Shown here in pieces: positions 3,056 through 40,560 of a DNA stretch of 42,538 bases. The first letter of the stretch is position 1; each line of letters begins with the position of its first letter. The notes under the pieces are model-generated. The model ran no database searches, was not told where the DNA came from, and saw only the letters and a program-made list of their open reading frames with translations. Source of the stretch: an uncultured Candidatus Saccharibacteria bacterium (GTDB taxonomy: Bacteria > Patescibacteriota > Saccharimonadia > Saccharimonadales > JAGQNJ01); NCBI GenBank assembly GCA_964493895.1, contig CAZBPY010000001.1, positions 165,245 through 207,782 on the forward strand, written 5' to 3'. A program made the translations under genes and the position numbers.

Positions 3056-4405
3056 CTATTTGATTCTTCCCACAGCGTCAAACCTAAGTCCAGTACCTTC
3101 TAGTGAATTTTGGCTTATGCAGTTATCTGCATCATATATTAAATCGCCGTGCATAACTTTTTTGATGCGGTCATAATCCATTTCCTTAAATTCGGACCAA
3201 GCGGTTGCGATGATTAGAGCATCTGCTTTTGAGGCAGCACCTAAGACAGAATCGCATACTTCTATGGCTTTGTTTAAATCTCTTTTGGCTTCGCCATTGG
3301 CATACGGATCATATACCGAAACAGATGCCCCAAACTTGCTTAGTAAGTTTGCAATTTTAACACCAGGAGATCTGCGGGTGTCACTAGTACCTGCCTTGAA
3401 TGAGAGTCCCAATACGGCTACCTTTTTGTCTGCAAGGCTGCCGCCTAGCATTTCTTCTACACGACTGGCTATGTAGCCAGGCATGCTGTCGTTAACCTCG
3501 GTAGCAGCAGTCATAATTGGCATGTCGATACCATATTCGGCAGAGCTGCTAATCAGGCCTGAAACGTCCTTAGGGAAGCAACCGCCACCATAGCCGCGCC
3601 CAGCATTAAGGAAAGCTCGACCAATGCGCTTGTCAACACCTACAGCATCCATAACTTCTACTACGTCCGCATGCACTTTATCGCAGAGCTTGGCAATTGA
3701 GTTGGCGAATGAAATTTTTAGAGCCAAGAACGCATTGGCTGTAACTTTAATAAGTTCTGCACTCTCAAGCTGGGTGATGATATATTCGCCATTATGTTTT
3801 TTTAGTTCGTGTGCAATATCGAGTCCTATTATTTTTGCTATTTCAGGCGCACGCTCTTCTATAGTTTTGTACAGATCTATAACTTTTCTTATAGCCTCTT
3901 GATCATCCCCGCCTGCTACAACTCGGTCAAAAAGAAGGGTGTCATATATGGCTGTGCCTTCACGAAGAAATTCTGGGTTTGATACATAAGCTTGTCCTTT
4001 GGGTAGAAGCTCAATAACTTTTCCGCCAGTACCAACTGGCACGGTGCTTTTCTGTATATAAACAGCAGTTGGCTTCAAGTATTTTGCGGCAGTCTTGGCT
4101 GCCTTAAAAACATATTGCAAATCGGAACTTCCATCGGTATGATCAGGTGTTGCTACGCAAGAAAATACAAAATCAGCGTTTCTTAGTGCCTGTTCATAAT
4201 CAGTAGTTGCGGTTAATCTATTTTTTTCTATACCTGCGGTTATAGCCTTATCTAATCCATTCTCAAAAAAAGGAGCTCCACCGCTATTAATTACCTCTAC
4301 CTTGCTGGCGTCTATATCTAATGTAACTACCTCATGATCTGCTAGAGCGAATAACGCCGCAACGGTTGTACCAACATAGCCGCCACCAATAACTGTTATA
4401 TTCAC
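3056..4405 (-). CDS. ugd: UDP-glucose/GDP-mannose dehydrogenase family protein
   Basis: GGGYVG Rossmann motif, KSTVPVGT, SNPEFLREG, GYGGGCFPKD, LSFKAGTSDTRRSP; GTG start. Confidence 0.95.
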   Translation of the reverse strand: MNITVIGGGYVGTTVAALFALADHEVVTLDIDASKVEVINSGGAPFFENGLDKAITAGIEKNRLTATTDYEQALRNADFVFSCVATPDHTDGSSDLQYVFKAAKTAAKYLKPTAVYIQKSTVPVGTGGKVIELLPKGQAYVSNPEFLREGTAIYDTLLFDRVVAGGDDQEAIRKVIDLYKTIEERAPEIAKIIGLDIAHELKKHNGEYIITQLESAELIKVTANAFLALKISFANSIAKLCDKVHADVVEVMDAVGVDKRIGRAFLNAGRGYGGGCFPKDVSGLISSSAEYGIDMPIMTAATEVNDSMPGYIASRVEEMLGGSLADKKVAVLGLSFKAGTSDTRRSPGVKIANLLSKFGASVSVYDPYANGEAKRDLNKAIEVCDSVLGAASKADALIIATAWSEFKEMDYDRIKKVMHGDLIYDADNCISQNSLEGTGLRFDAVGRIK

Positions 4406-6712: not shown

Positions 6713-9088
<2,376 letters not shown>

Positions 9089-13445: not shown

Positions 13446-13918
13446 GCCAAGGCCAGGCAAAAGATCAGGCCAAGATTCGGCCCACCAAGAAACAACGCCA
13501 GACCCTGACATTTATTGAAAGTTTTATCAAGCAGCACGGTTATAGCCCCAGCTACCGCGAGATTATGCGCGGCTGTAATTATTCGTCGGTGGCCACGGCC
13601 GCTCTGCATGTTAATAATCTGATCAAACGCGGGCATTTGCAAAAGCGAGACCATTCGGCCCGGTCGTTGGAAATTATTTCCGGGGAAGATTTAGATGATT
13701 TTCAGTCGACGGCTATAAAAGAGGGCGAAGAAAAATGGCTGGTCAAAAAAATCGAATACTATTTCAAACAAGCTGAAGACCAACAGACGATTTCACAATC
13801 TCAACTCGATGAGTTGTATGTGTTAACCGGAGCTTTGAAGGCTCTTGGTTTAGAGGGAGCAGCCCAGAGTTTTATTCCCCGACTTGGTGAGCTTAAGGGC
13901 AGGGTAGCTGATAAATGA
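13442..13918 (+). CDS. LexA-type winged-helix DNA-binding protein lacking the S24 peptidase domain
   Basis: TKKQRQTLTFIESFIKQHGYSPSYREI...SVATAALHVNNLIKRGHL..SARSLEII matches the LexA N-domain; the ~75-aa C-terminus looks helical with no Ala-Gly site or Ser/Lys dyad; ATGA overlaps at both ends. Confidence 0.85.
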   Translation: MSQGQAKDQAKIRPTKKQRQTLTFIESFIKQHGYSPSYREIMRGCNYSSVATAALHVNNLIKRGHLQKRDHSARSLEIISGEDLDDFQSTAIKEGEEKWLVKKIEYYFKQAEDQQTISQSQLDELYVLTGALKALGLEGAAQSFIPRLGELKGRVADK

Positions 13919-14718
13919 GTCTATGGCTAGCTTTGCTGTTAGGTCTAGTCCAGGGTCTTACTGAATTTATCCCGGTGTCGAGTTCCGGCCACTTGGTTTT
14001 ATTGCACGATTGGTTTGGCATCAATAGATCGGGCTTGGCTTTTGATGTAGCACTGCATTTTGGAACTTTGCTGGCATTGCTGCTGTGTTTCCGTCACGAC
14101 TTACTTAAGCTAGCCAGAGGTGTTTTTCGAGGTGGCGCCGAGCGGCGCCTGGCCATCATCCTGGCGGTGGCTACCGTGCCGGCCGTGTTAACAGGTTTAT
14201 TTTTGGACAGTCTAGCTAGATCCGGTTTTCGCAGCCCGACTTTGGTGGCCCTGAATTTGATTATAGTGGCCATTTTAATGCTGGCCGCCGAGTGGTACTA
14301 TGCTCGCCATCAACCTAAAACAAAAAAAGTTGAGTCAACCGACTTAAAACAGGGCGCGGCAATCGGCCTAGCCCAGGCATTGGCCTTAGTGCCGGGAACA
14401 TCAAGGTCGGGTTTGACCATTTCCACCGGGTTATTTGCTGGCCTGGACAGGGTAGCGGCCACCAGGTTTTCATTTTTACTAGGCATACCGATTATGGCCG
14501 GAGCCATCATAAAAATCTTTGCTTTTGACGGCGGAGCCAGCCAGATCTCCAATCAACCGGCCATGTTTAGTGTCGGCATTATTGCCGCCTTCGTGTCCGG
14601 CTTGGCGGCGATTGCCTTCATGCTGCGCTTTCTAGCTAACCATTCCTTAAAGATCTTCGCGTACTATCGTATTGGTATTGGACTGCTAGTACTTCTATTT
14701 AGCGTAAGCAGCATGTAA
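13915..14718 (+). CDS. uppP: Undecaprenyl-diphosphatase
   Basis: GLVQGLTEFIPVSSSGHL, HFGTLLA, LVPGTSRSG, RFSFLLGIP. Confidence 0.97.
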   Translation: MSLWLALLLGLVQGLTEFIPVSSSGHLVLLHDWFGINRSGLAFDVALHFGTLLALLLCFRHDLLKLARGVFRGGAERRLAIILAVATVPAVLTGLFLDSLARSGFRSPTLVALNLIIVAILMLAAEWYYARHQPKTKKVESTDLKQGAAIGLAQALALVPGTSRSGLTISTGLFAGLDRVAATRFSFLLGIPIMAGAIIKIFAFDGGASQISNQPAMFSVGIIAAFVSGLAAIAFMLRFLANHSLKIFAYYRIGIGLLVLLFSVSSM

Positions 14719-14747
14719 AAACCACTACATATAGTGTGACCTAGCCA

Positions 14748-14903
14748 TGTTATGCTAGTAATACATTAACAAAAAAACACTGGAAGCAGGTGGAATTCCT
14801 GCGCTATGCCGTAACGGTGACAGCCCGATACAGTTAAAGTCTTCCGAGCAGAAGCGAGATTTTCGGACATAGCCTCGTTTTCACAGGAAGACGAGGATTT
14901 TTT
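14748..14903 (+). promoter_or_regulatory. Extended -10 promoter followed by a structured ~140-nt 5' leader (candidate attenuator/riboswitch)
   Basis: TGtTATGCT at 14748-14756; stems GCAGG/CCTGC (14786-14802), GCTATG/CATAGC (14803-08/14868-73), GTCTTCC/GGAAGAC (14839-45/14886-92). Confidence 0.5.
14873..14903 (+). terminator. Intrinsic terminator-like hairpin immediately before the start codon at 14904
   Basis: 10-bp stem CCTCGTTTTC/GAAGACGAGG (one G-U), ACAG loop, then ATTTTTT and ATG. Confidence 0.65.
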
Positions 14904-16256
14904 ATGCCCAGCCCGGCCTTAGCCGAAGTCTACCAGTTTAACGAAGTAGCCGACCAACCGCCGCAAGTGATAATTGTGCCGGAAATGGCCGATGATCAAC
15001 TAGTACGTCACCGAGCTGCTCGATTTGCTGGCCAACTAGCCAGCCAATCAACTGTCGAAGTAGACAAAGCTCTGACTGATGCTGAACCGCACACCACACT
15101 ATTTGAAGCTGTGACCACTGGCAATAGTGATCTAGTCCGAGCTAATGTCGAGGCTAATATGGTGGAAATTGCCTTTAAAGCCGGCTTTGTAACAGAAGTT
15201 CAATTGCAGGAGGACGAAAATGGACATACTCATCAGTACGGACAGAGTCTTAAGTCGATCCAAGCCAATAATTTGCTGCACGGTACAGATAGTGGCGAGA
15301 TGCATCAACGATCGCAAGCTGAAAACAGAAATGTCTTTCGGTTTGAATCTGTCAAACAAACGGGCTTACTCCAGAACCACTGGTTCGTGACTGTTTCTAG
15401 AACCGCTACTGAGATGACAGAGAGGGCGATGGATCAGGCTGGGTTCTTTACTGAAACCATGAGTCTATCTATTCAGGCCACTACTGACTTGGACGGTGTT
15501 TTGACTATGGAATCGGCCTTTATGGCTGGGGTTGCTGAGGAGGGTGGTGAGCGGCGTGATGAAGAGATAGTCGCAGCCATCGGTGAGGCTATTGGTGTAG
15601 ATTTGCGCGGTCTGTCAGCGACAGAATTATTGGATATGCCGTTATTAATTCCGAAATCTTTAATGCCGAATGGAACTATCGACTTGGTAGCCATGGGCGA
15701 TGAACCATTTGGGACTTTCTTTGGCCAGAACAAGCCAGGGCAGGATTACCTTGCTTACCGCGAAGCTTGCCGCCAGCACCGGGCAATGTTTAGCCAGAAG
15801 GTCGATAAAGTAACTGATCAATTGATGAAAGAAGCTGTTCATATCAAGGATGAGATTGATGCCACAAAGCGCCTCCACGAACTTTGCGGTGATGAAATGG
15901 TCAGACAGGCCGTAGTCGACGAGTGGATAGATCCTGGAGTTTTCGGGCCACAATCAAAACCCTTCATTATCGAAGCTCGCCGGCAACTAGCACTTGGAAA
16001 CAGCCATGCCGGACTGGAGGCGACCAAAAAAGCCTTAGAAGTAGCGGACCCCCGTTCGTGTGCGTTCTCATCAAAAGCCGGAAACAATAGCCTGGAAAGA
16101 TCAGAAAACGACTCCAGGCCATCTGACGAAGCCGATGATTTTGGCCCACTATGGTTTAAATGCAAGAAAGGACATTGGAATAAACGAAAGCGCGCCAAGA
16201 GCTCTAAAGACTTTATGTCTCACTGTAAAACCTGTGGTGTAAGTGTGGCTTGCTAA
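14904..16256 (+). CDS. Hypothetical 450-aa acidic protein with a C-terminal Cys/His cluster
   Basis: Long open frame; C-terminus FKCKKGHW...HCKTCGVSVAC suggests a zinc ribbon; no family recognised. Confidence 0.8.
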   Translation: MPSPALAEVYQFNEVADQPPQVIIVPEMADDQLVRHRAARFAGQLASQSTVEVDKALTDAEPHTTLFEAVTTGNSDLVRANVEANMVEIAFKAGFVTEVQLQEDENGHTHQYGQSLKSIQANNLLHGTDSGEMHQRSQAENRNVFRFESVKQTGLLQNHWFVTVSRTATEMTERAMDQAGFFTETMSLSIQATTDLDGVLTMESAFMAGVAEEGGERRDEEIVAAIGEAIGVDLRGLSATELLDMPLLIPKSLMPNGTIDLVAMGDEPFGTFFGQNKPGQDYLAYREACRQHRAMFSQKVDKVTDQLMKEAVHIKDEIDATKRLHELCGDEMVRQAVVDEWIDPGVFGPQSKPFIIEARRQLALGNSHAGLEATKKALEVADPRSCAFSSKAGNNSLERSENDSRPSDEADDFGPLWFKCKKGHWNKRKRAKSSKDFMSHCKTCGVSVAC

Positions 16257-37003: not shown

Positions 37004-37077
37004 GCCTATTGTAGATAAACCAAATCTTCTCTGTTATACTTCGAATGTTCGAGTCTTGGGTAGATTCTGAGACTTGC

Positions 37078-37153
37078 GGGGCGGTAGCTCAGTGGTTAGA
37101 GCAGTCGGCTCATAACCGATTGGCCGAAGGTTCAATTCCTTCCCGCCCCACCA
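37078..37153 (+). tRNA. tRNA with CAU anticodon (probably Ile2/lysidine; elongator Met not excluded), CCA encoded
   Basis: Acceptor GGGGCGG/CCGCCCC, D-arm GCTC/GAGC, anticodon arm GTCGG-CTCATAA-CCGAT, T-arm GAAGG-TTCAATT-CCTTC, A73, CCA. Not fMet (no C1:A72, no three G:C pairs in the anticodon stem). Confidence 0.95.
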
Positions 37154-37163
37154 CGCAAACACT

Positions 37164-37508
37164 CTATACTTTGCTGAAGAGTAAACAGACCATTTTCTTT
37201 CTGAGTACTTCTGATCTTTGTTGATCTGATCCTTCACCTAAATACATACCTTTAGCTTCTGCAGCAGGCAAGTAATTACTTACTTGCTCATAAAGGTTGG
37301 TCTGGTTTGTACTTAGCACACCATTCGGGGCCAGGATATAAATAACATCATAACCAAGCGGTAATTCTGAAGTTTCTTCACCAATAACCATTGTAGGCAT
37401 TTCTCCCAGTGATTCTGCGAAACGATTTGCCCTGCCCATTGTTTCAGGTGATCCAATTACTAGAACGTTTGTGTTGCGTATATCGTGGTTGAAATCTATC
37501 GGTATCAT
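37164..37508 (-). CDS. Cassette 1: hypothetical small alpha/beta protein (114 aa)
   Basis: Open frame; NVLVIG and DVIYILAP strands; start MIPIDF has TGaTAAACT 7 nt upstream. Confidence 0.65.
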   Translation of the reverse strand: MIPIDFNHDIRNTNVLVIGSPETMGRANRFAESLGEMPTMVIGEETSELPLGYDVIYILAPNGVLSTNQTNLYEQVSNYLPAAEAKGMYLGEGSDQQRSEVLRKKMVCLLFSKV

Positions 37509-37537
37509 CAGGGGTAGTTTATCAAGTGCTGTATTGT

Positions 37538-37690
37538 GGTTCAACGCTCTTTACCCTGTACCGCCAGCTCTGTTCAATTTGCACTAGGCCAGCTTCTCGA
37601 AGTTGCTTTGACCAATCAGATTTAGAGTTCGCTATCAACCACTCCGCGACAGTACCGAGAGGTTCAAAAGTCTTCGCTTTATCGCCACCA
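37538..37690 (+). repeat. Array repeat copy 1 (153 bp; 11-nt deletion removes the peptide stop codon)
   Basis: GGTTCAACGCTCTTTA ... GGTTCAAAAGTCTTCGCTTTATCGCCACCA. Confidence 0.93.
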
Positions 37691-37697
37691 CGGATTT

Positions 37698-38288
37698 TTA
37701 ACCACCGAGGCCAACTATTACCTCAATTGACCGACAATCATCGCCCTGGACACCTTCTTCAAAGTAGTGAATCCTTGAGTCCGCAGTTCCGTTAACGCCT
37801 GATGGTTCTAAATCAGATAGGTATGCGATTGCTTCACTTTTATGCTCGGGAGCAAGGGCCTGCATGGCATAACCAGATAGACAATCTGCGATTGCTTCTC
37901 GACGAGGACGAGTGGTTTCGATTTCTTGGCTAGTTACGTGTCCAAATTCATGACCAACGATAAAGTCAATTACACCATCAACTTCATCACCGTAGGTTTC
38001 TGCAAGAAAATCGAGAAACTTCTGCGTAAACTCAATGGTTGGTCCGCCATGCTCTTCTGGCACAAAGCAAGCATTAGCAAGCTTTCCGTTTAAGCAAGCT
38101 CCTGCATCATCTTCATCAAGCATATCAAGCTCAACATCAGTAGCATCTACACCACGGCTGACCCAGAAATCTTGATACCGCTCAAAGGCAGAGTCTAAGA
38201 TCGCTTGTGGTTTATCGCATGGGGCCGCTTCGCTACTTACACCAGCTAGGAGGGCGGTTGCTATAAGAACAGGAGCAAGTTTTCGCAT
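37698..38288 (-). CDS. Cassette 2: secreted neutral zinc metallopeptidase (YpfJ-like)
   Basis: Signal peptide; NACF, VGHEFGHV (HExxH), REAIADCLSG, GTADSRIHYFEEG. Confidence 0.82.
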   Translation of the reverse strand: MRKLAPVLIATALLAGVSSEAAPCDKPQAILDSAFERYQDFWVSRGVDATDVELDMLDEDDAGACLNGKLANACFVPEEHGGPTIEFTQKFLDFLAETYGDEVDGVIDFIVGHEFGHVTSQEIETTRPRREAIADCLSGYAMQALAPEHKSEAIAYLSDLEPSGVNGTADSRIHYFEEGVQGDDCRSIEVIVGLGG

Positions 38289-38334
38289 TAAATCTATTTT
38301 TTCACCGCATCGCTATAATGCAAGCATAAGCTTA

Positions 38335-38498
38335 GGTTCAACGCTCTTTATCTTACTCTTTTCTAGTACCGCCACATCTGTTCGACTGTAACCCTTGACA
38401 TCTCTTCCAACTGATTTGTCCAGTCAGGATTAGGGTGAGCAATCAGCCACTCTACGACAGACTTCAAAGGTTCAACACTCTTCGCTTTATCGCCACCA
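38335..38498 (+). repeat. Array repeat copy 2 (164 bp, intact)
   Basis: GGTTCAACGCTCTTTATC ... GGTTCAACACTCTTCGCTTTATCGCCACCA. Confidence 0.95.
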
Positions 38499-38541
38499 CA
38501 AAGTATTGCATTTTACATATAACTATGTTAAAATAATAAGC

Positions 38542-38805
38542 ATGGCACGATCGACAGCCGCACAGTCAGAGTTAGTCACGGTTCGTCTTACTGGCGATGA
38601 TATAACTACTGCAAAAGAACTAGCAATGATTGCTGATGTTACTGGCTCAAACTTCTCTAGAGAGGTACGGGCTGGTTTACAGATGCGATTAGATCAAATC
38701 AGACAAGATCCTGCAGACAGAGCGGCTATTATAGCTGGGGTTGTCGAGCAGCACAGGGTAGCTGAAGAGTTTTTGGGTGAAGAAATACATATACCTAGAA
38801 GCTAG
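38542..38805 (+). CDS. Cassette 3: small putative DNA-binding protein (ribbon-helix-helix-like)
   Basis: Beta-like LVTVRLT followed by two amphipathic helices; TTGCAT...TAAAAT promoter 7 nt before the ATG; the stop codon TAG overlaps repeat 3. Confidence 0.65.
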   Translation: MARSTAAQSELVTVRLTGDDITTAKELAMIADVTGSNFSREVRAGLQMRLDQIRQDPADRAAIIAGVVEQHRVAEEFLGEEIHIPRS

Positions 38806-38968
38806 GTTCAACGCTCTTTATCTTGTAGCTAATTAGTACCGCCAACTCTGTTCAATGGTCACCGAACCAGCTTCTTTGAGCTGTAATGACCAGGCGGGAC
38901 TAGGGTTCGCAATCATCCATTCCACAACAGAACTCAAAGGTTCAAAACTCTTCGCTTTATCGCCACCA
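38805..38968 (+). repeat. Array repeat copy 3 (164 bp, intact)
   Basis: GGTTCAACGCTCTTTATC ... GGTTCAAAACTCTTCGCTTTATCGCCACCA. Confidence 0.95.
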
Positions 38969-39011
38969 GATTCCACTGTCCGTTTCATCGTAATAGTGCT
39001 AATGTATACTC

Positions 39012-39707
39012 ATGGATAATCAACAAAATATTGCCCCTCAAACTCAAACTCAAACTGATCAAAACCTAAACCAACCAAAGCAGCCCCAGAATAAAAAGAA
39101 AATCATAGTAGTCTCACTCATTGCAATCCTAATTCTAGCTGCATTCGGGGGCTTATACTATTGGCAAAACAGCAAGAATAAAAATTTGCAAAAACAACTG
39201 GATGCTACAAAGGCTCAATTAGAAAAACAGCAAACTAAAACAGAGGTTAATGATATTCCAACCACGAAAGCACCTGTTGATCCTAACTATGCAGGCTGGG
39301 CACAAGTGACAAACGAAACCTTAAATCCAAATCAAATAGCACTTTACAAGAACGGCACAGCAACATTATCTGTGTATAGTAAAGAACCCATGATGAACCT
39401 AAGCTCTAATGCTCCTGGATACTGCACACTACAGAATGAGGCGTGGACACCTTCTGATAGGTGTAATAGTAGCATTACTGAGTCGACAGTTAATGGCATG
39501 AACGCATATACGGCATATGGAGGAGCTCTCGGCCGAACTAAATACTTAGTAGTAGTCCAGAGCAACAATCAGTGGTTCGTCTTTAGTGACTATCTTGATT
39601 ATGACCCAGATCCAACAAAGGACTCTAATGTAGAAATAAACCAGGACAAAGCTCAACTAGCAAGTTCAATGGAAAAGCTCGTTGCCAAAGTACTTCCGCA
39701 AAATTAG
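39012..39707 (+). CDS. Cassette 4: bitopic surface protein (Gln/Asn-rich tail, TM, coiled coil, small extracellular domain with a Cys pair)
   Basis: KKKIIVVSLIAILILAAFGGLYYW TM, then KNLQKQLDATKAQLEKQQ heptads. Confidence 0.82.
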   Translation: MDNQQNIAPQTQTQTDQNLNQPKQPQNKKKIIVVSLIAILILAAFGGLYYWQNSKNKNLQKQLDATKAQLEKQQTKTEVNDIPTTKAPVDPNYAGWAQVTNETLNPNQIALYKNGTATLSVYSKEPMMNLSSNAPGYCTLQNEAWTPSDRCNSSITESTVNGMNAYTAYGGALGRTKYLVVVQSNNQWFVFSDYLDYDPDPTKDSNVEINQDKAQLASSMEKLVAKVLPQN

Positions 39708-39709
39708 AT

Positions 39710-39839
39710 TTAGTATCTCCACACCTGTTCAATCTGCACTGAACTTGCTCCTTTGAGCTGTGACACCCATCCAGGCTAGGGTTAGAAATCAGCCAATCAA
39801 CTACACTAGCCAAAGGTTCAAAAACACATCTTTTTCACC
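39710..39839 (+). repeat. Array repeat copy 4 (degenerate: left site lost, -1 frameshift, CCACCA end eroded)
   Basis: Minus strand reads FEPLASVVDWLISNPS /frameshift/ GWVSQLKGASSVQIEQVWRY-stop. Confidence 0.88.
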
Positions 39840-39953
39840 TTCAGTAATTTTATAGGCTTGTTTCTTGCTATCCATGCGGTCTTTGTTATTTCGTAAAATT
39901 ATGCTTTTACGACAACTTTGAATAAACGCTGCATCAAGCTTATAGTTATGTGT

Positions 39954-40457
39954 ATGAATGAAACACTAGATCAACCAAGAGAACACATAGATTTATCAAC
40001 TGATGAGTACACGGCTGCATTTGCTGCTGCTCCGCTTTATGCTAAGAAGTCTCTAGTTAAAATGAGAGCTGCAACACCAGGTGAAACTATTGTCACAAGG
40101 CTACAGGATGGCACAGTGGAAACCACAAACACAGCTGGTAAAAACCAAGTTGTTGTTACAAATCTTGGTGGTGAGGAGTATATTATCGATGCTGATAAGG
40201 CTGCTAAGCGTTATGAAGAAACAGATGAACCTGGCGTCTTTAGGGCAACAGGCATGGCAAGAATTATAGATAACCCTACTGGAGGTGACGTAAGCGTGAC
40301 GGCTCCTTGGGGTGAAGAGCAGCTTGGAGCGGCTGACTGTAAGTTTGCTGCACTCTATGATCCAACTCAGCCAGAGGTGGTAAGCGACGACCGCTATATA
40401 TTGGGTGCTGCCGAGTTTGCAGAAACCTACGGTCTTGTCGAAGAAGTGCTGGGATAA
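39954..40457 (+). CDS. Cassette 5: PGDYG-like protein with an internal tandem duplication
   Basis: Two halves ending GGEEYIIDADKAAKRYE and DDRYILGAAEFAETYG; TATAGT 7 nt before ATG 39954. Confidence 0.7.
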   Translation: MNETLDQPREHIDLSTDEYTAAFAAAPLYAKKSLVKMRAATPGETIVTRLQDGTVETTNTAGKNQVVVTNLGGEEYIIDADKAAKRYEETDEPGVFRATGMARIIDNPTGGDVSVTAPWGEEQLGAADCKFAALYDPTQPEVVSDDRYILGAAEFAETYGLVEEVLG

Positions 40458-40465
40458 CAAGCCTA

Positions 40466-40489
40466 GGTTCAAAGCTCTTCGCTTTATCG
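40466..40489 (+). repeat. Array repeat copy 5 (collapsed single site)
   Basis: ctaGGTTCAAAGCTCTTCGCTTTATCG; left-site flank joined to right-site core. Confidence 0.85.
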
Positions 40490-40560
40490 TCTACGTGTCA
40501 AAATTTTAACGGTTTAATCGATTAACGTGCAGTACCCTTAAGAATGTAAATAAGGAGACT

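Follow-up and report, generated by a model that had tools for sequence, protein, structure and literature searches.

The window analyzed here is a stretch of 42,538 nucleotides (nt) from an uncultured Candidatus Saccharibacteria bacterium (contig CAZBPY010000001.1), in which a tRNA-Met gene is followed downstream by five small cassettes, spaced by a repeat unit of ~170 nt that is present in four copies. The minus strand of this unit encodes a 44-amino-acid (aa) peptide, the orphan tail, whose reading frame has no beginning. Our comparative analyses suggest that each of these headless frames is probably the 3'-terminal part of a gene for a large serine recombinase (LSR), which stayed in place when an element integrated site-specifically at the 3' end of the tRNA-Met. 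An initial annotation, made from the letters of this DNA, had taken the peptide for the probable orphaned C-terminus of an integrase, with Myxococcus phage Mx8 as its example. The idea of an orphaned C-terminus is borne out by relatives in which the tail stands in frame with a recombinase body, but the enzyme found there is a serine recombinase rather than an Mx8-type tyrosine enzyme.

Three of the four copies encode the intact, start-less peptide, and the fourth (39710-39823) is frameshifted and lacks GGDKAK. Read along the minus strand, a unit consists of motif B (TGGTGG-CGATAAAGCGAAGAGTT-TTGAACC), 33 further codons, a stop, a spacer of ~10 nt and motif A (GATAAAGAGCG-TTGAACC). Each frame starts at the TGGTGG that complements CCACCA, with its first T at 37690, 38498 and 38968. 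Upstream of this point, the frame of copy 1 stays open for 13 codons and then meets a stop without passing an ATG, GTG or TTG; copy 2 likewise has no start codon, and copy 3 has a chance ATG nine codons upstream, which makes an open reading frame (ORF) of 51 aa (38833-38988). Copy 1 has also lost its stop by an 11-nt deletion, and its frame runs on into motif A. Copies 2 (38363-38497) and 3 (38833-38967) are free of insertions and deletions relative to each other; 21 codons are identical, 10 differ synonymously, including the TAG/TAA stop, and 14 differ in the amino acid. Translation returned all four peptides at the positions given by the initial annotation, whose placement of the frame start, description of copy 1 and count of ten synonymous codons were likewise exact.

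With an nhmmer profile of the unit, we gathered ~27 copies from the window, two syntenic metagenome contigs (L001 and L002), four genome contigs and several other metagenome contigs. In a scan of species genomes, the full repeat unit occurred on four contigs, all of them Saccharibacteria metagenome-assembled genomes; three further single matches to a 23-nt pattern came from unrelated phyla and lacked the full unit. Codon statistics were confined to the 16 distinct intact copies. About one third of all copies are broken by premature stops or frameshifts, window copy 4 among them, as relics in decay would be. Over codons 14-44, the per-site entropy is 0.69, 0.47 and 1.07 at codon positions 1, 2 and 3, respectively. 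The tail frame has the lowest ratios of nonsynonymous to synonymous change among the six frames, with a pooled polymorphism ratio (pN/pS) of 0.43 and a median substitution ratio (dN/dS) of 0.30. Across the copies, serine is encoded by TCN and AGY codons, arginine by CGN and AGR, and leucine by CTN and TTR, and the stop keeps one fixed position, be it TAG, TAA or TGA. The tail frame has evolved as a protein, as the initial annotation had argued from copies 2 and 3. Coding on the antisense strand was considered and rejected: the shadow frame gives higher values for both ratios (pN/pS 0.56 pooled, dN/dS 0.42 as the median) and has no conserved stop.

Relatives retrieved with HMMER at only 27-45% identity to the window tail align almost gap-free, with the consensus G-x-x-E/K-A-x-x-F/L-E-P-L...W-L...P...W..QL.EA......Q.Y.Y/L-stop, and conservation begins exactly at the invariant Gly of TGGTG. 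In the first 11 codons, which make up motif B, the DNA sequence itself is conserved, third positions not excepted, and motif B therefore acts as a DNA site besides coding. Neither the tail nor the last 90 aa matched anything in Pfam, NCBIfam, PHROGs or PDB, and an AlphaFold2 model of the tail-bearing ORF P0030 (106-sequence alignment) was unreliable, with a mean predicted local distance difference test score of 58.

The initial annotation had proposed a search for full-length proteins that end in the tail. A word search of 5.8 billion proteins and an HMMER search of 1.84 billion representatives returned none that was intact. They returned ORFs of 33-147 aa that match at their extreme C-termini and have unrelated N-termini. 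Three longer HMMER matches (375, 461 and 569 aa) each comprise several short stretches, the 569-aa one being a tandem-repeat protein. Four ORFs of 91-100 aa (P0030, P0022, P0041 and P0039), in turn, share a conserved extension of at least 47 aa before the tail. In independent lineages this region reads ...KMRAGSAVEKD..ILFLNL....W.EPF..L...G-tail, and the tail is in frame and contiguous with it at three loci (L026, L027 and L028) and in five ORFs (P0022, P0030, P0039, P0041 and P0107). In the DNA of L026 and L028 the homology of the extension goes further upstream through in-frame stops, and in L029 a frameshifted, Cys-rich zinc-ribbon segment precedes it. L028 carries the GGDKAK type of tail seen in the window, and there a decayed LSR end runs in frame into GGDKAKTFEPLESVVEWLFENPLPGWSLQLKEASEVKVEQSWRY and a stop.

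A search with the extension alone yielded 76 fragments of up to 136 aa. Many of them end in G-ARERT, G-TDERT or G-RGERT and a stop, or run into sequences like VRMRGLEPP. The G-ARERT-type endings, GGAG-stop and VRMRGLEPP are translations of antisense tRNA. On an 876-kb Saccharibacteria contig (L022), the extension is the end of an intact LSR of 525 aa (13810-15387). This protein matches the Pfam Resolvase domain (PF00239) at 5.4e-16 over residues 15-157, with the catalytic motif YARRSTTDEGSQ, the phrog_95 integrase family at 3e-48 over residues 7-507, and, in PDB, the catalytic domains of TP901-1 integrase and TnpX. The Recombinase domain (PF07508) scores 34.7 bits in the LSR of L012, above the cut-off, and 19.1 bits in that of L022, below it. 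Cys-rich segments (CGVC...YRCDNPGC) can be recognized, as can a long heptad-like stretch; no Pfam zinc-ribbon family matched. Judged on these relatives, the protein that the tail belongs to is a large serine recombinase. As phrog_95 stops at residue 507 of 525, the 44-aa tail lies beyond the canonical fold, and its conservation down to ~27% identity argues for a role in the full-length enzyme, where we infer that it has a function.

The L022 locus displays the proposed arrangement in one element. Its LSR overlaps a tRNA-Leu (UAG) on the opposite strand by ~20 nt and ends SSG-AGERT-stop, and the order along the contig is orphan tail (P0037, 10001-10171), cargo, LSR and tRNA-Leu, with the tail 5.3 kb from the tRNA; the cargo comprises an AAA_15 ATPase, a DUF5681 protein and small ORFs. 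The tail-side junction reads gtgagttccatatt up to the boundary and TGGTGCAGCAGAAGACACTCTGCTTGAACC beyond it, the tRNA-side junction reads gaaatgtcgtc and then TGGTGCCGGGGAGAGGACTTGAACC, and both are in one phase, xxT GGT GC. In-silico excision, by which the body is joined to the tail across TGGTGC, gives an uninterrupted ORF of 563 aa. The attachment site attP within the recombinase gene and the tail stranded at the attR junction, both put forward in the initial annotation, agree with this locus. So does its expectation that the recombinase reads into the antisense tRNA: an LSR body or remnant does this at tRNA-Leu in L022, where it is intact, and in L030, and at tRNA-Met in L032, where the remnant ends SGGAG-stop inside the tRNA, at a distance of 1.5 kb from a tail of the GGAEA type. 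The read-through peptide predicted for the window (VGREGIEPSANRL), by contrast, had been taken in the wrong frame, as the stub in the tail's frame would be GGAGRN followed by a stop. The L022 LSR is not among the genes called by the Joint Genome Institute annotation, apparently because it overlaps the tRNA-Leu. This may explain why no intact LSR in the attL form, the state joined to the tRNA, appeared among the protein-search matches, and it implies that protein databases under-represent the integrated form of the enzyme.

The geometry of the attachment sites points in the same direction. LSRs characteristically recombine attP with attB by a crossover with a 2-bp stagger. In three lineages, the tail-side half-site and the end of the cognate tRNA share TGGTG(G/C) and (C/T)TTGAACC, and the spacing from TGGTG to TTGAACC is always 17 nt in motif B and 12 nt in the cognate tRNA. 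The first 6-11 nt of motif B follow the cognate tRNA (TGGTGC for Leu and TGGTGG for Met), and homology between the copies stops exactly at TGGTGG. In the window, the attB-type half-site is the 3' end of the tRNA-Met itself (37129-37153, GGTTCAATTCCTTCCCGCCCCACCA), which reads TGGTGG, 12 nt and TTGAACC on the minus strand. In the structure of phiC31 integrase, the zinc-ribbon domain lies at positions 17-27 on attP and 12-22 on attB, 5 bp closer (10.1101/2025.05.02.651858). Our comparison suggests that the 17- and 12-nt spacings are this attP/attB offset of serine integrases. With TTGAACC at the outer edge of the zinc-ribbon ranges, the center of the crossover would lie within TGGTGG, at the CCA end of the tRNA. 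Because 5 nt is not a multiple of three, the offset also shifts the reading frame. With 12 nt, as in attB, the codons are ...ACT TGA ACC, and the stop falls in the T-loop; with 17 nt, as in attP, they are ...CTT GAA CCT, which encode the conserved E-P, and the frame stays open for 33 more codons.

On this basis, we propose the following course of events. In the free element, the LSR gene would run across its own attP, such that the last ~15 codons of the canonical LSR lie to the left of the crossover, and motif B with the 33 codons lies to the right. Motif B would be an attP-type half-site that imitates the attB-type tRNA end with 5 extra nt. Recombination of attP with attB at or beside the CCA end would join the LSR body to the antisense strand of the tRNA, which itself stays intact. 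The LSR at the tRNA would thereby lose its tail and meet a stop in or just before the T-loop, after 4-7 codons in the examples seen, and the segment of motif B plus tail would be stranded without its head at the opposite junction, attR. As the tRNA is restored each time, further integrations there would stack units of B, tail, A and cargo into an array, and the coding signature of the orphan tails would reflect their history inside functional LSR genes.

The proposed mechanism is well supported by comparative anatomy, but several observations weigh against it. No recombination was directly observed. No recombinase of any kind, including Phage_integrase matches, was found among the window proteins, and none of the five window cassettes contains an LSR or an LSR remnant. 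All recombinases in which body and tail are contiguous are decayed, truncated or cut by a contig end. Searches for the free element found no match, either in IMG/VR with LSR protein patterns together with both B motifs, or by tblastn against 50,697 phage records. To the left of every motif B in the window lies unrelated cargo, and a conserved left (P) arm beside B was sought in recombinase-less cassettes and not found; these cassettes have no canonical two-armed attP. Motif A falls outside the model as set out above. Finally, the array of L001 (7845-10840) is inverted relative to the flavin mononucleotide (FMN) reductase gene and lies upstream of the tRNA-Met on the strand of the peptides, an arrangement that could be a rearrangement or a misassembly. 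The same contig carries a second type of attachment site, TGGTGGGGATGACTTGGTCGCAATGGAACC, with 17-nt spacing, which starts 4 nt after the FMN reductase stop and resembles the end of the LSR gene in L012.

The recombinase is present within its own element in L022 and partly so in L011 and L012, whose LSR genes lie within GGDKAK-type arrays, as compared with none of the five window cassettes; few cassettes in L001, L007, L008 and L019 carry any LSR trace. We infer that the window cassettes were either mobilized in trans or have lost their LSR. Many graded LSR remnants occur in other genomes, so that LSR decay does take place. The tight boundaries and the small, mostly single-gene cassettes nevertheless favor movement in trans over LSR loss.

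These features lead to the strongest alternative, in which the orphan tails are still under selection and a serine recombinase moves cassettes of B, tail, A and cargo in trans, in a manner similar to integrons. A cassette landing beside a resident LSR would restore its 44-aa C-terminus, the alternation between tail and stub would control direction or activity, and motif A would be a second site, with attB geometry, for cassette exchange. We regard this alternative as possible, but the less probable course. In its favor, the cassettes have tight boundaries at B and A and mostly contain a single gene (three at most), and the cargo stops inside A: the genes are mostly on the tRNA strand and use as their stop the TAG of TAG-GTTCAAC in motif A, and genes on the opposite strand end a few nt short of TGGTGG. 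The absence of any LSR trace from the five window cassettes fits as well, as does L012, where cassettes extend from an LSR to the tRNA. The cargo genes are accessory and almost entirely different from one genome to the next. In motif A, the proximal motif has the register that it has in the B of the unit (GATAAAG in the Met group and AGAAGCCA in the Leu group, where equivalents of A occur in L022, L024, L026, L027 and L030). The TTGAACC of motif A lies 5 nt closer than in B, which is the attB geometry, and from the Met to the Leu lineage motif A changes together with B. Moreover, L003 and L028 are ~99.7% identical over A plus cargo, but only ~88% identical over B plus tail, with unrelated DNA to the left of TGGTGG; the B-tail module has therefore been exchanged at both its ends. 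Site-specific recombination at A could account for this exchange, as could homologous recombination inside the repeat, and the latter would explain the break of identity at A without an integron-like system. Further points against such a system are that about a third of the orphan tails are already broken, that LSRs normally need both half-sites, that neither circular forms nor empty sites have been seen, and that the tail has no detectable similarity to a known directionality factor or a solved structure and gave a poor AlphaFold model.

A related and more far-reaching idea concerns the 5-bp offset. It may serve as a reading-frame switch, by which the C-terminus of the enzyme records the state of the site and sets directionality without a separate factor, in an integron-like LSR cassette system at tRNA 3' ends whose cassettes carry a spare tail and an A motif of attB geometry for exchange. 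On an attP-type half-site, the enzyme would be extended by the 44-aa tail; on one of attB type, such as the tRNA and possibly motif A, it would end after a few codons. We advance this only tentatively. The built-in regulatory switch by C-terminal exchange that the initial annotation had envisaged would be of this kind.

The remaining alternatives fare far worse. That the 44-aa frame is an independent small gene, translated alone from, for example, a non-canonical start, appears very unlikely. Metagenome gene callers do annotate ORFs of 46-105 aa that end in the tail, and copy 3 has its ATG nine codons upstream. However, the N-terminal extensions of such ORFs share neither sequence nor length, in most copies there is no ATG, GTG or TTG before the upstream stop, conservation sets in only at the invariant Gly, and several lineages have the frame as the continuation of an LSR body. 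A system like that of Mx8 or the SSV viruses with a tyrosine integrase would share the logic of an attP inside the integrase gene, and tRNA targets are typical of such enzymes. We consider it barely credible, as the attached protein has a Resolvase catalytic domain, an apparent Recombinase domain, a Cys-rich zinc-ribbon-like segment and matches to serine integrases, and no tyrosine integrase was found in the window or beside the arrays examined. Hardly any weight can be given, either, to the notion of a non-coding DNA or RNA element, such as an attC-like hairpin, a terminator or a tRNA- or transfer-messenger RNA (tmRNA)-like RNA, with an incidental frame. Motif B is indeed conserved as DNA and resembles a tRNA 3' end, but beyond it the repeat shows 3-nt periodicity, switches between the Ser, Arg and Leu codon families and three different stop codons at one position, its distant relatives align as proteins, and Rfam matched tRNA only.

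Four more specific candidates were rejected. A tmRNA-type tag is excluded by the tRNA-like motif lying on the strand opposite the frame, and Rfam found nothing beyond tRNA. The template repeat of a diversity-generating retroelement was dismissed, with no reverse transcriptase in the window and substitutions that hit all bases without adenine bias. Integron attC sites do not apply, as A and B are direct and not inverted repeats, IntI is missing, and the repeat changes in the manner of codons. Silent cassettes for C-terminal antigenic variation would call for an expression locus, of which there is none, and here the tails are conserved and the cargo is variable.

The proposed system combines features of several known ones. 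In IntP of Mx8 and the SSV-type integrases, attP lies inside the int gene, and integration changes its 3' end (Mx8) or splits the gene (SSV) (PMC6070905; PMC4383910). Common to these and the present case are the gene fragment left at the other junction and the integration at tRNA genes. Mx8 and SSV, however, employ tyrosine recombinases, whereas the enzyme here is an LSR. Moreover, the half-site on the tail side mimics the tRNA end with 5 nt inserted, the stub amounts to only a few codons with its stop in or just before the T-loop, and the tails pile up in multi-cassette arrays. With the serine integrases of phiC31, TP901-1, A118/LI and Bxb1, the LSR appears to share the domain architecture, and it shares the 5-bp offset of the distal motif between attP and attB; it differs in its target, the 3' end of a tRNA gene, and in that no separate directionality factor was identified. 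In the integration-dependent immunity of mycobacteriophages, which Broussard et al. are said to have described in 2013, attP reportedly lies inside the repressor gene. There, too, a phage protein receives another C-terminus upon integration at a tRNA, and its activity is thereby switched, but the protein is a repressor and the integrase a tyrosine enzyme, whereas here the recombinase itself would be altered.

Cis-mobilizable elements (CIMEs) and site-specific accretion are familiar causes of tandem elements stacked at tRNA genes, some without a recombinase of their own. The tycheposons of Prochlorococcus have tyrosine recombinases in 910 of 937 cases (10.1101/2020.12.28.424599). Like tycheposons and CIMEs, the cassettes are small cargo elements that follow one another at tRNA genes, make up hypervariable islands of streamlined genomes and in part lack a recombinase; the coding tail attached to the att repeat has no counterpart in tycheposons, which are, by this analogy, the nearest ecological analogue. 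Integron arrays resemble the present ones in their mostly single-gene cassettes (up to three genes), a conserved recombination-associated repeat of 130-170 nt and a strain-variable cargo. In contrast to integrons, the present arrays lack both IntI and the hairpin symmetry of attC, their repeat is part of a coding sequence, and a tRNA serves as their anchor.

Literature searches turned up no account of this system in Saccharibacteria. Saccharibacteria have tiny genomes with few recognized mobile elements, and the arrays would provide them with a hypervariable cassette hotspot together with the machinery likely feeding it, with a cargo in the window or its relatives that includes copper resistance, a toxin-antitoxin pair and surface proteins. 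With gene callers missing the tRNA-overlapping recombinase and labeling the orphan tails "hypothetical proteins", the system has been hidden from protein databases. Serine integrases are widely used tools of genome engineering, and their directionality normally needs a separate factor. If our reading is true, an enzyme with a C-terminus rewritten by its own reaction would be a compact, self-reporting variant. Three features appear to be new: the targeting of tRNA 3' ends by a serine integrase, the overlap of attP with the coding end of the enzyme, and the switching of the frame by a 5-bp offset. The first of these runs counter to the Islander paper (2014), which states that tRNA genes are specified by tyrosine integrases only.

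In the window, an ordinary stretch of Saccharibacteria (TM7) chromosome, the array lies downstream of the tRNA-Met (CAU) at 37078-37153 on the plus strand, identified by ARAGORN and at 76.7 bits by Rfam. Arrays adjoin the same tRNA-Met in eight loci. Next to the tRNA, cassette 0 (37164-37544, minus strand) is an ORF of 126 aa with no family match and no recombinase remnant. Motif A of unit 1 (37536-37557, minus) resembles motif B with TTGAACC 5 nt nearer to the proximal motif, and unit 1 (37558-37690, minus) holds orphan tail 1 (GGDKAKTFEPLGTVAEWLIANSKSDWSKQLREAGLVQIEQSWRY) and motif B (37661-37690), in which TGGTGG and TTGAACC are 17 nt apart. Cassette 1 (37698-38288, minus) encodes a lipoprotein-like protein of 196 aa with an HEFGH motif, whose stop is 8 nt from motif B. 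There follow motif A of unit 2 (38333-38354, minus) and unit 2 itself (38363-38498, minus), with tail 2, which ends in TAG, and motif B (38469-38498). Cassette 2 (38506-38805, plus) is an ORF of 99 aa, or 87 aa if read from its ATG, and its TAG stop supplies the first three nucleotides of motif A of unit 3 (38803-38824, minus). Unit 3 (38833-38968, minus) contains tail 3, ending in TAA, and motif B (38939-38968). Cassette 3 (39012-39707, plus) encodes a membrane-anchored protein of 231 aa that has a homologue, at 50% identity, in an L007 cassette. Unit 4 (39710-39847, minus) is a decayed, frameshifted tail with a degenerate GGDKAK region and no motif A. Cassette 4 (39918-40457, plus) is an ORF of 179 aa with a weak PGDYG match. 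Directly after it lies a B-type site without a tail (40464-40491, minus), in which TGGTGG is replaced by CGTAGA; it is probably the oldest, distal end of the array, and may have formed by deletion between an A and a B motif. The remaining genes of the window comprise rhamnose and glycosyltransferase genes, MurC, an ABC transporter, Dus, HxlR and an FMN reductase.

Some minor observations concern the tRNA and the cassette edges. An ORF of 67 aa at 37034-37237 on the minus strand is the antisense translation of the tRNA-Met (...WWGGKELNLRPIGYEPTALTTELPP...) and not a gene. The window tRNA-Met is intron-free, whereas in L002 the array-side tRNA-Met (CAU) has a group I intron (3459-3830, minus strand; Rfam RF00028, 71.5 bits) in its anticodon loop. 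The same intron-split tRNA-Met is present in L008 (~4592), L012 (~3553) and L014 (~1498), and ARAGORN reports no tRNA there because of the intron. Examples of cargo outside the window are a copper module of CsoR, DUF305 and a P-type ATPase (L002, 530-3306) and a ParE/Phd toxin-antitoxin pair (L024, 10233-10800). A near-palindromic motif, AAGCATAAGC(A/T)T, recurs at cassette edges beside B or A in several units, at 8444-8459 and 9428-9442 in L001, ~2630-2645 in L012 and 38305-38332 in the window, and may be a common promoter or terminator for the cargo genes.

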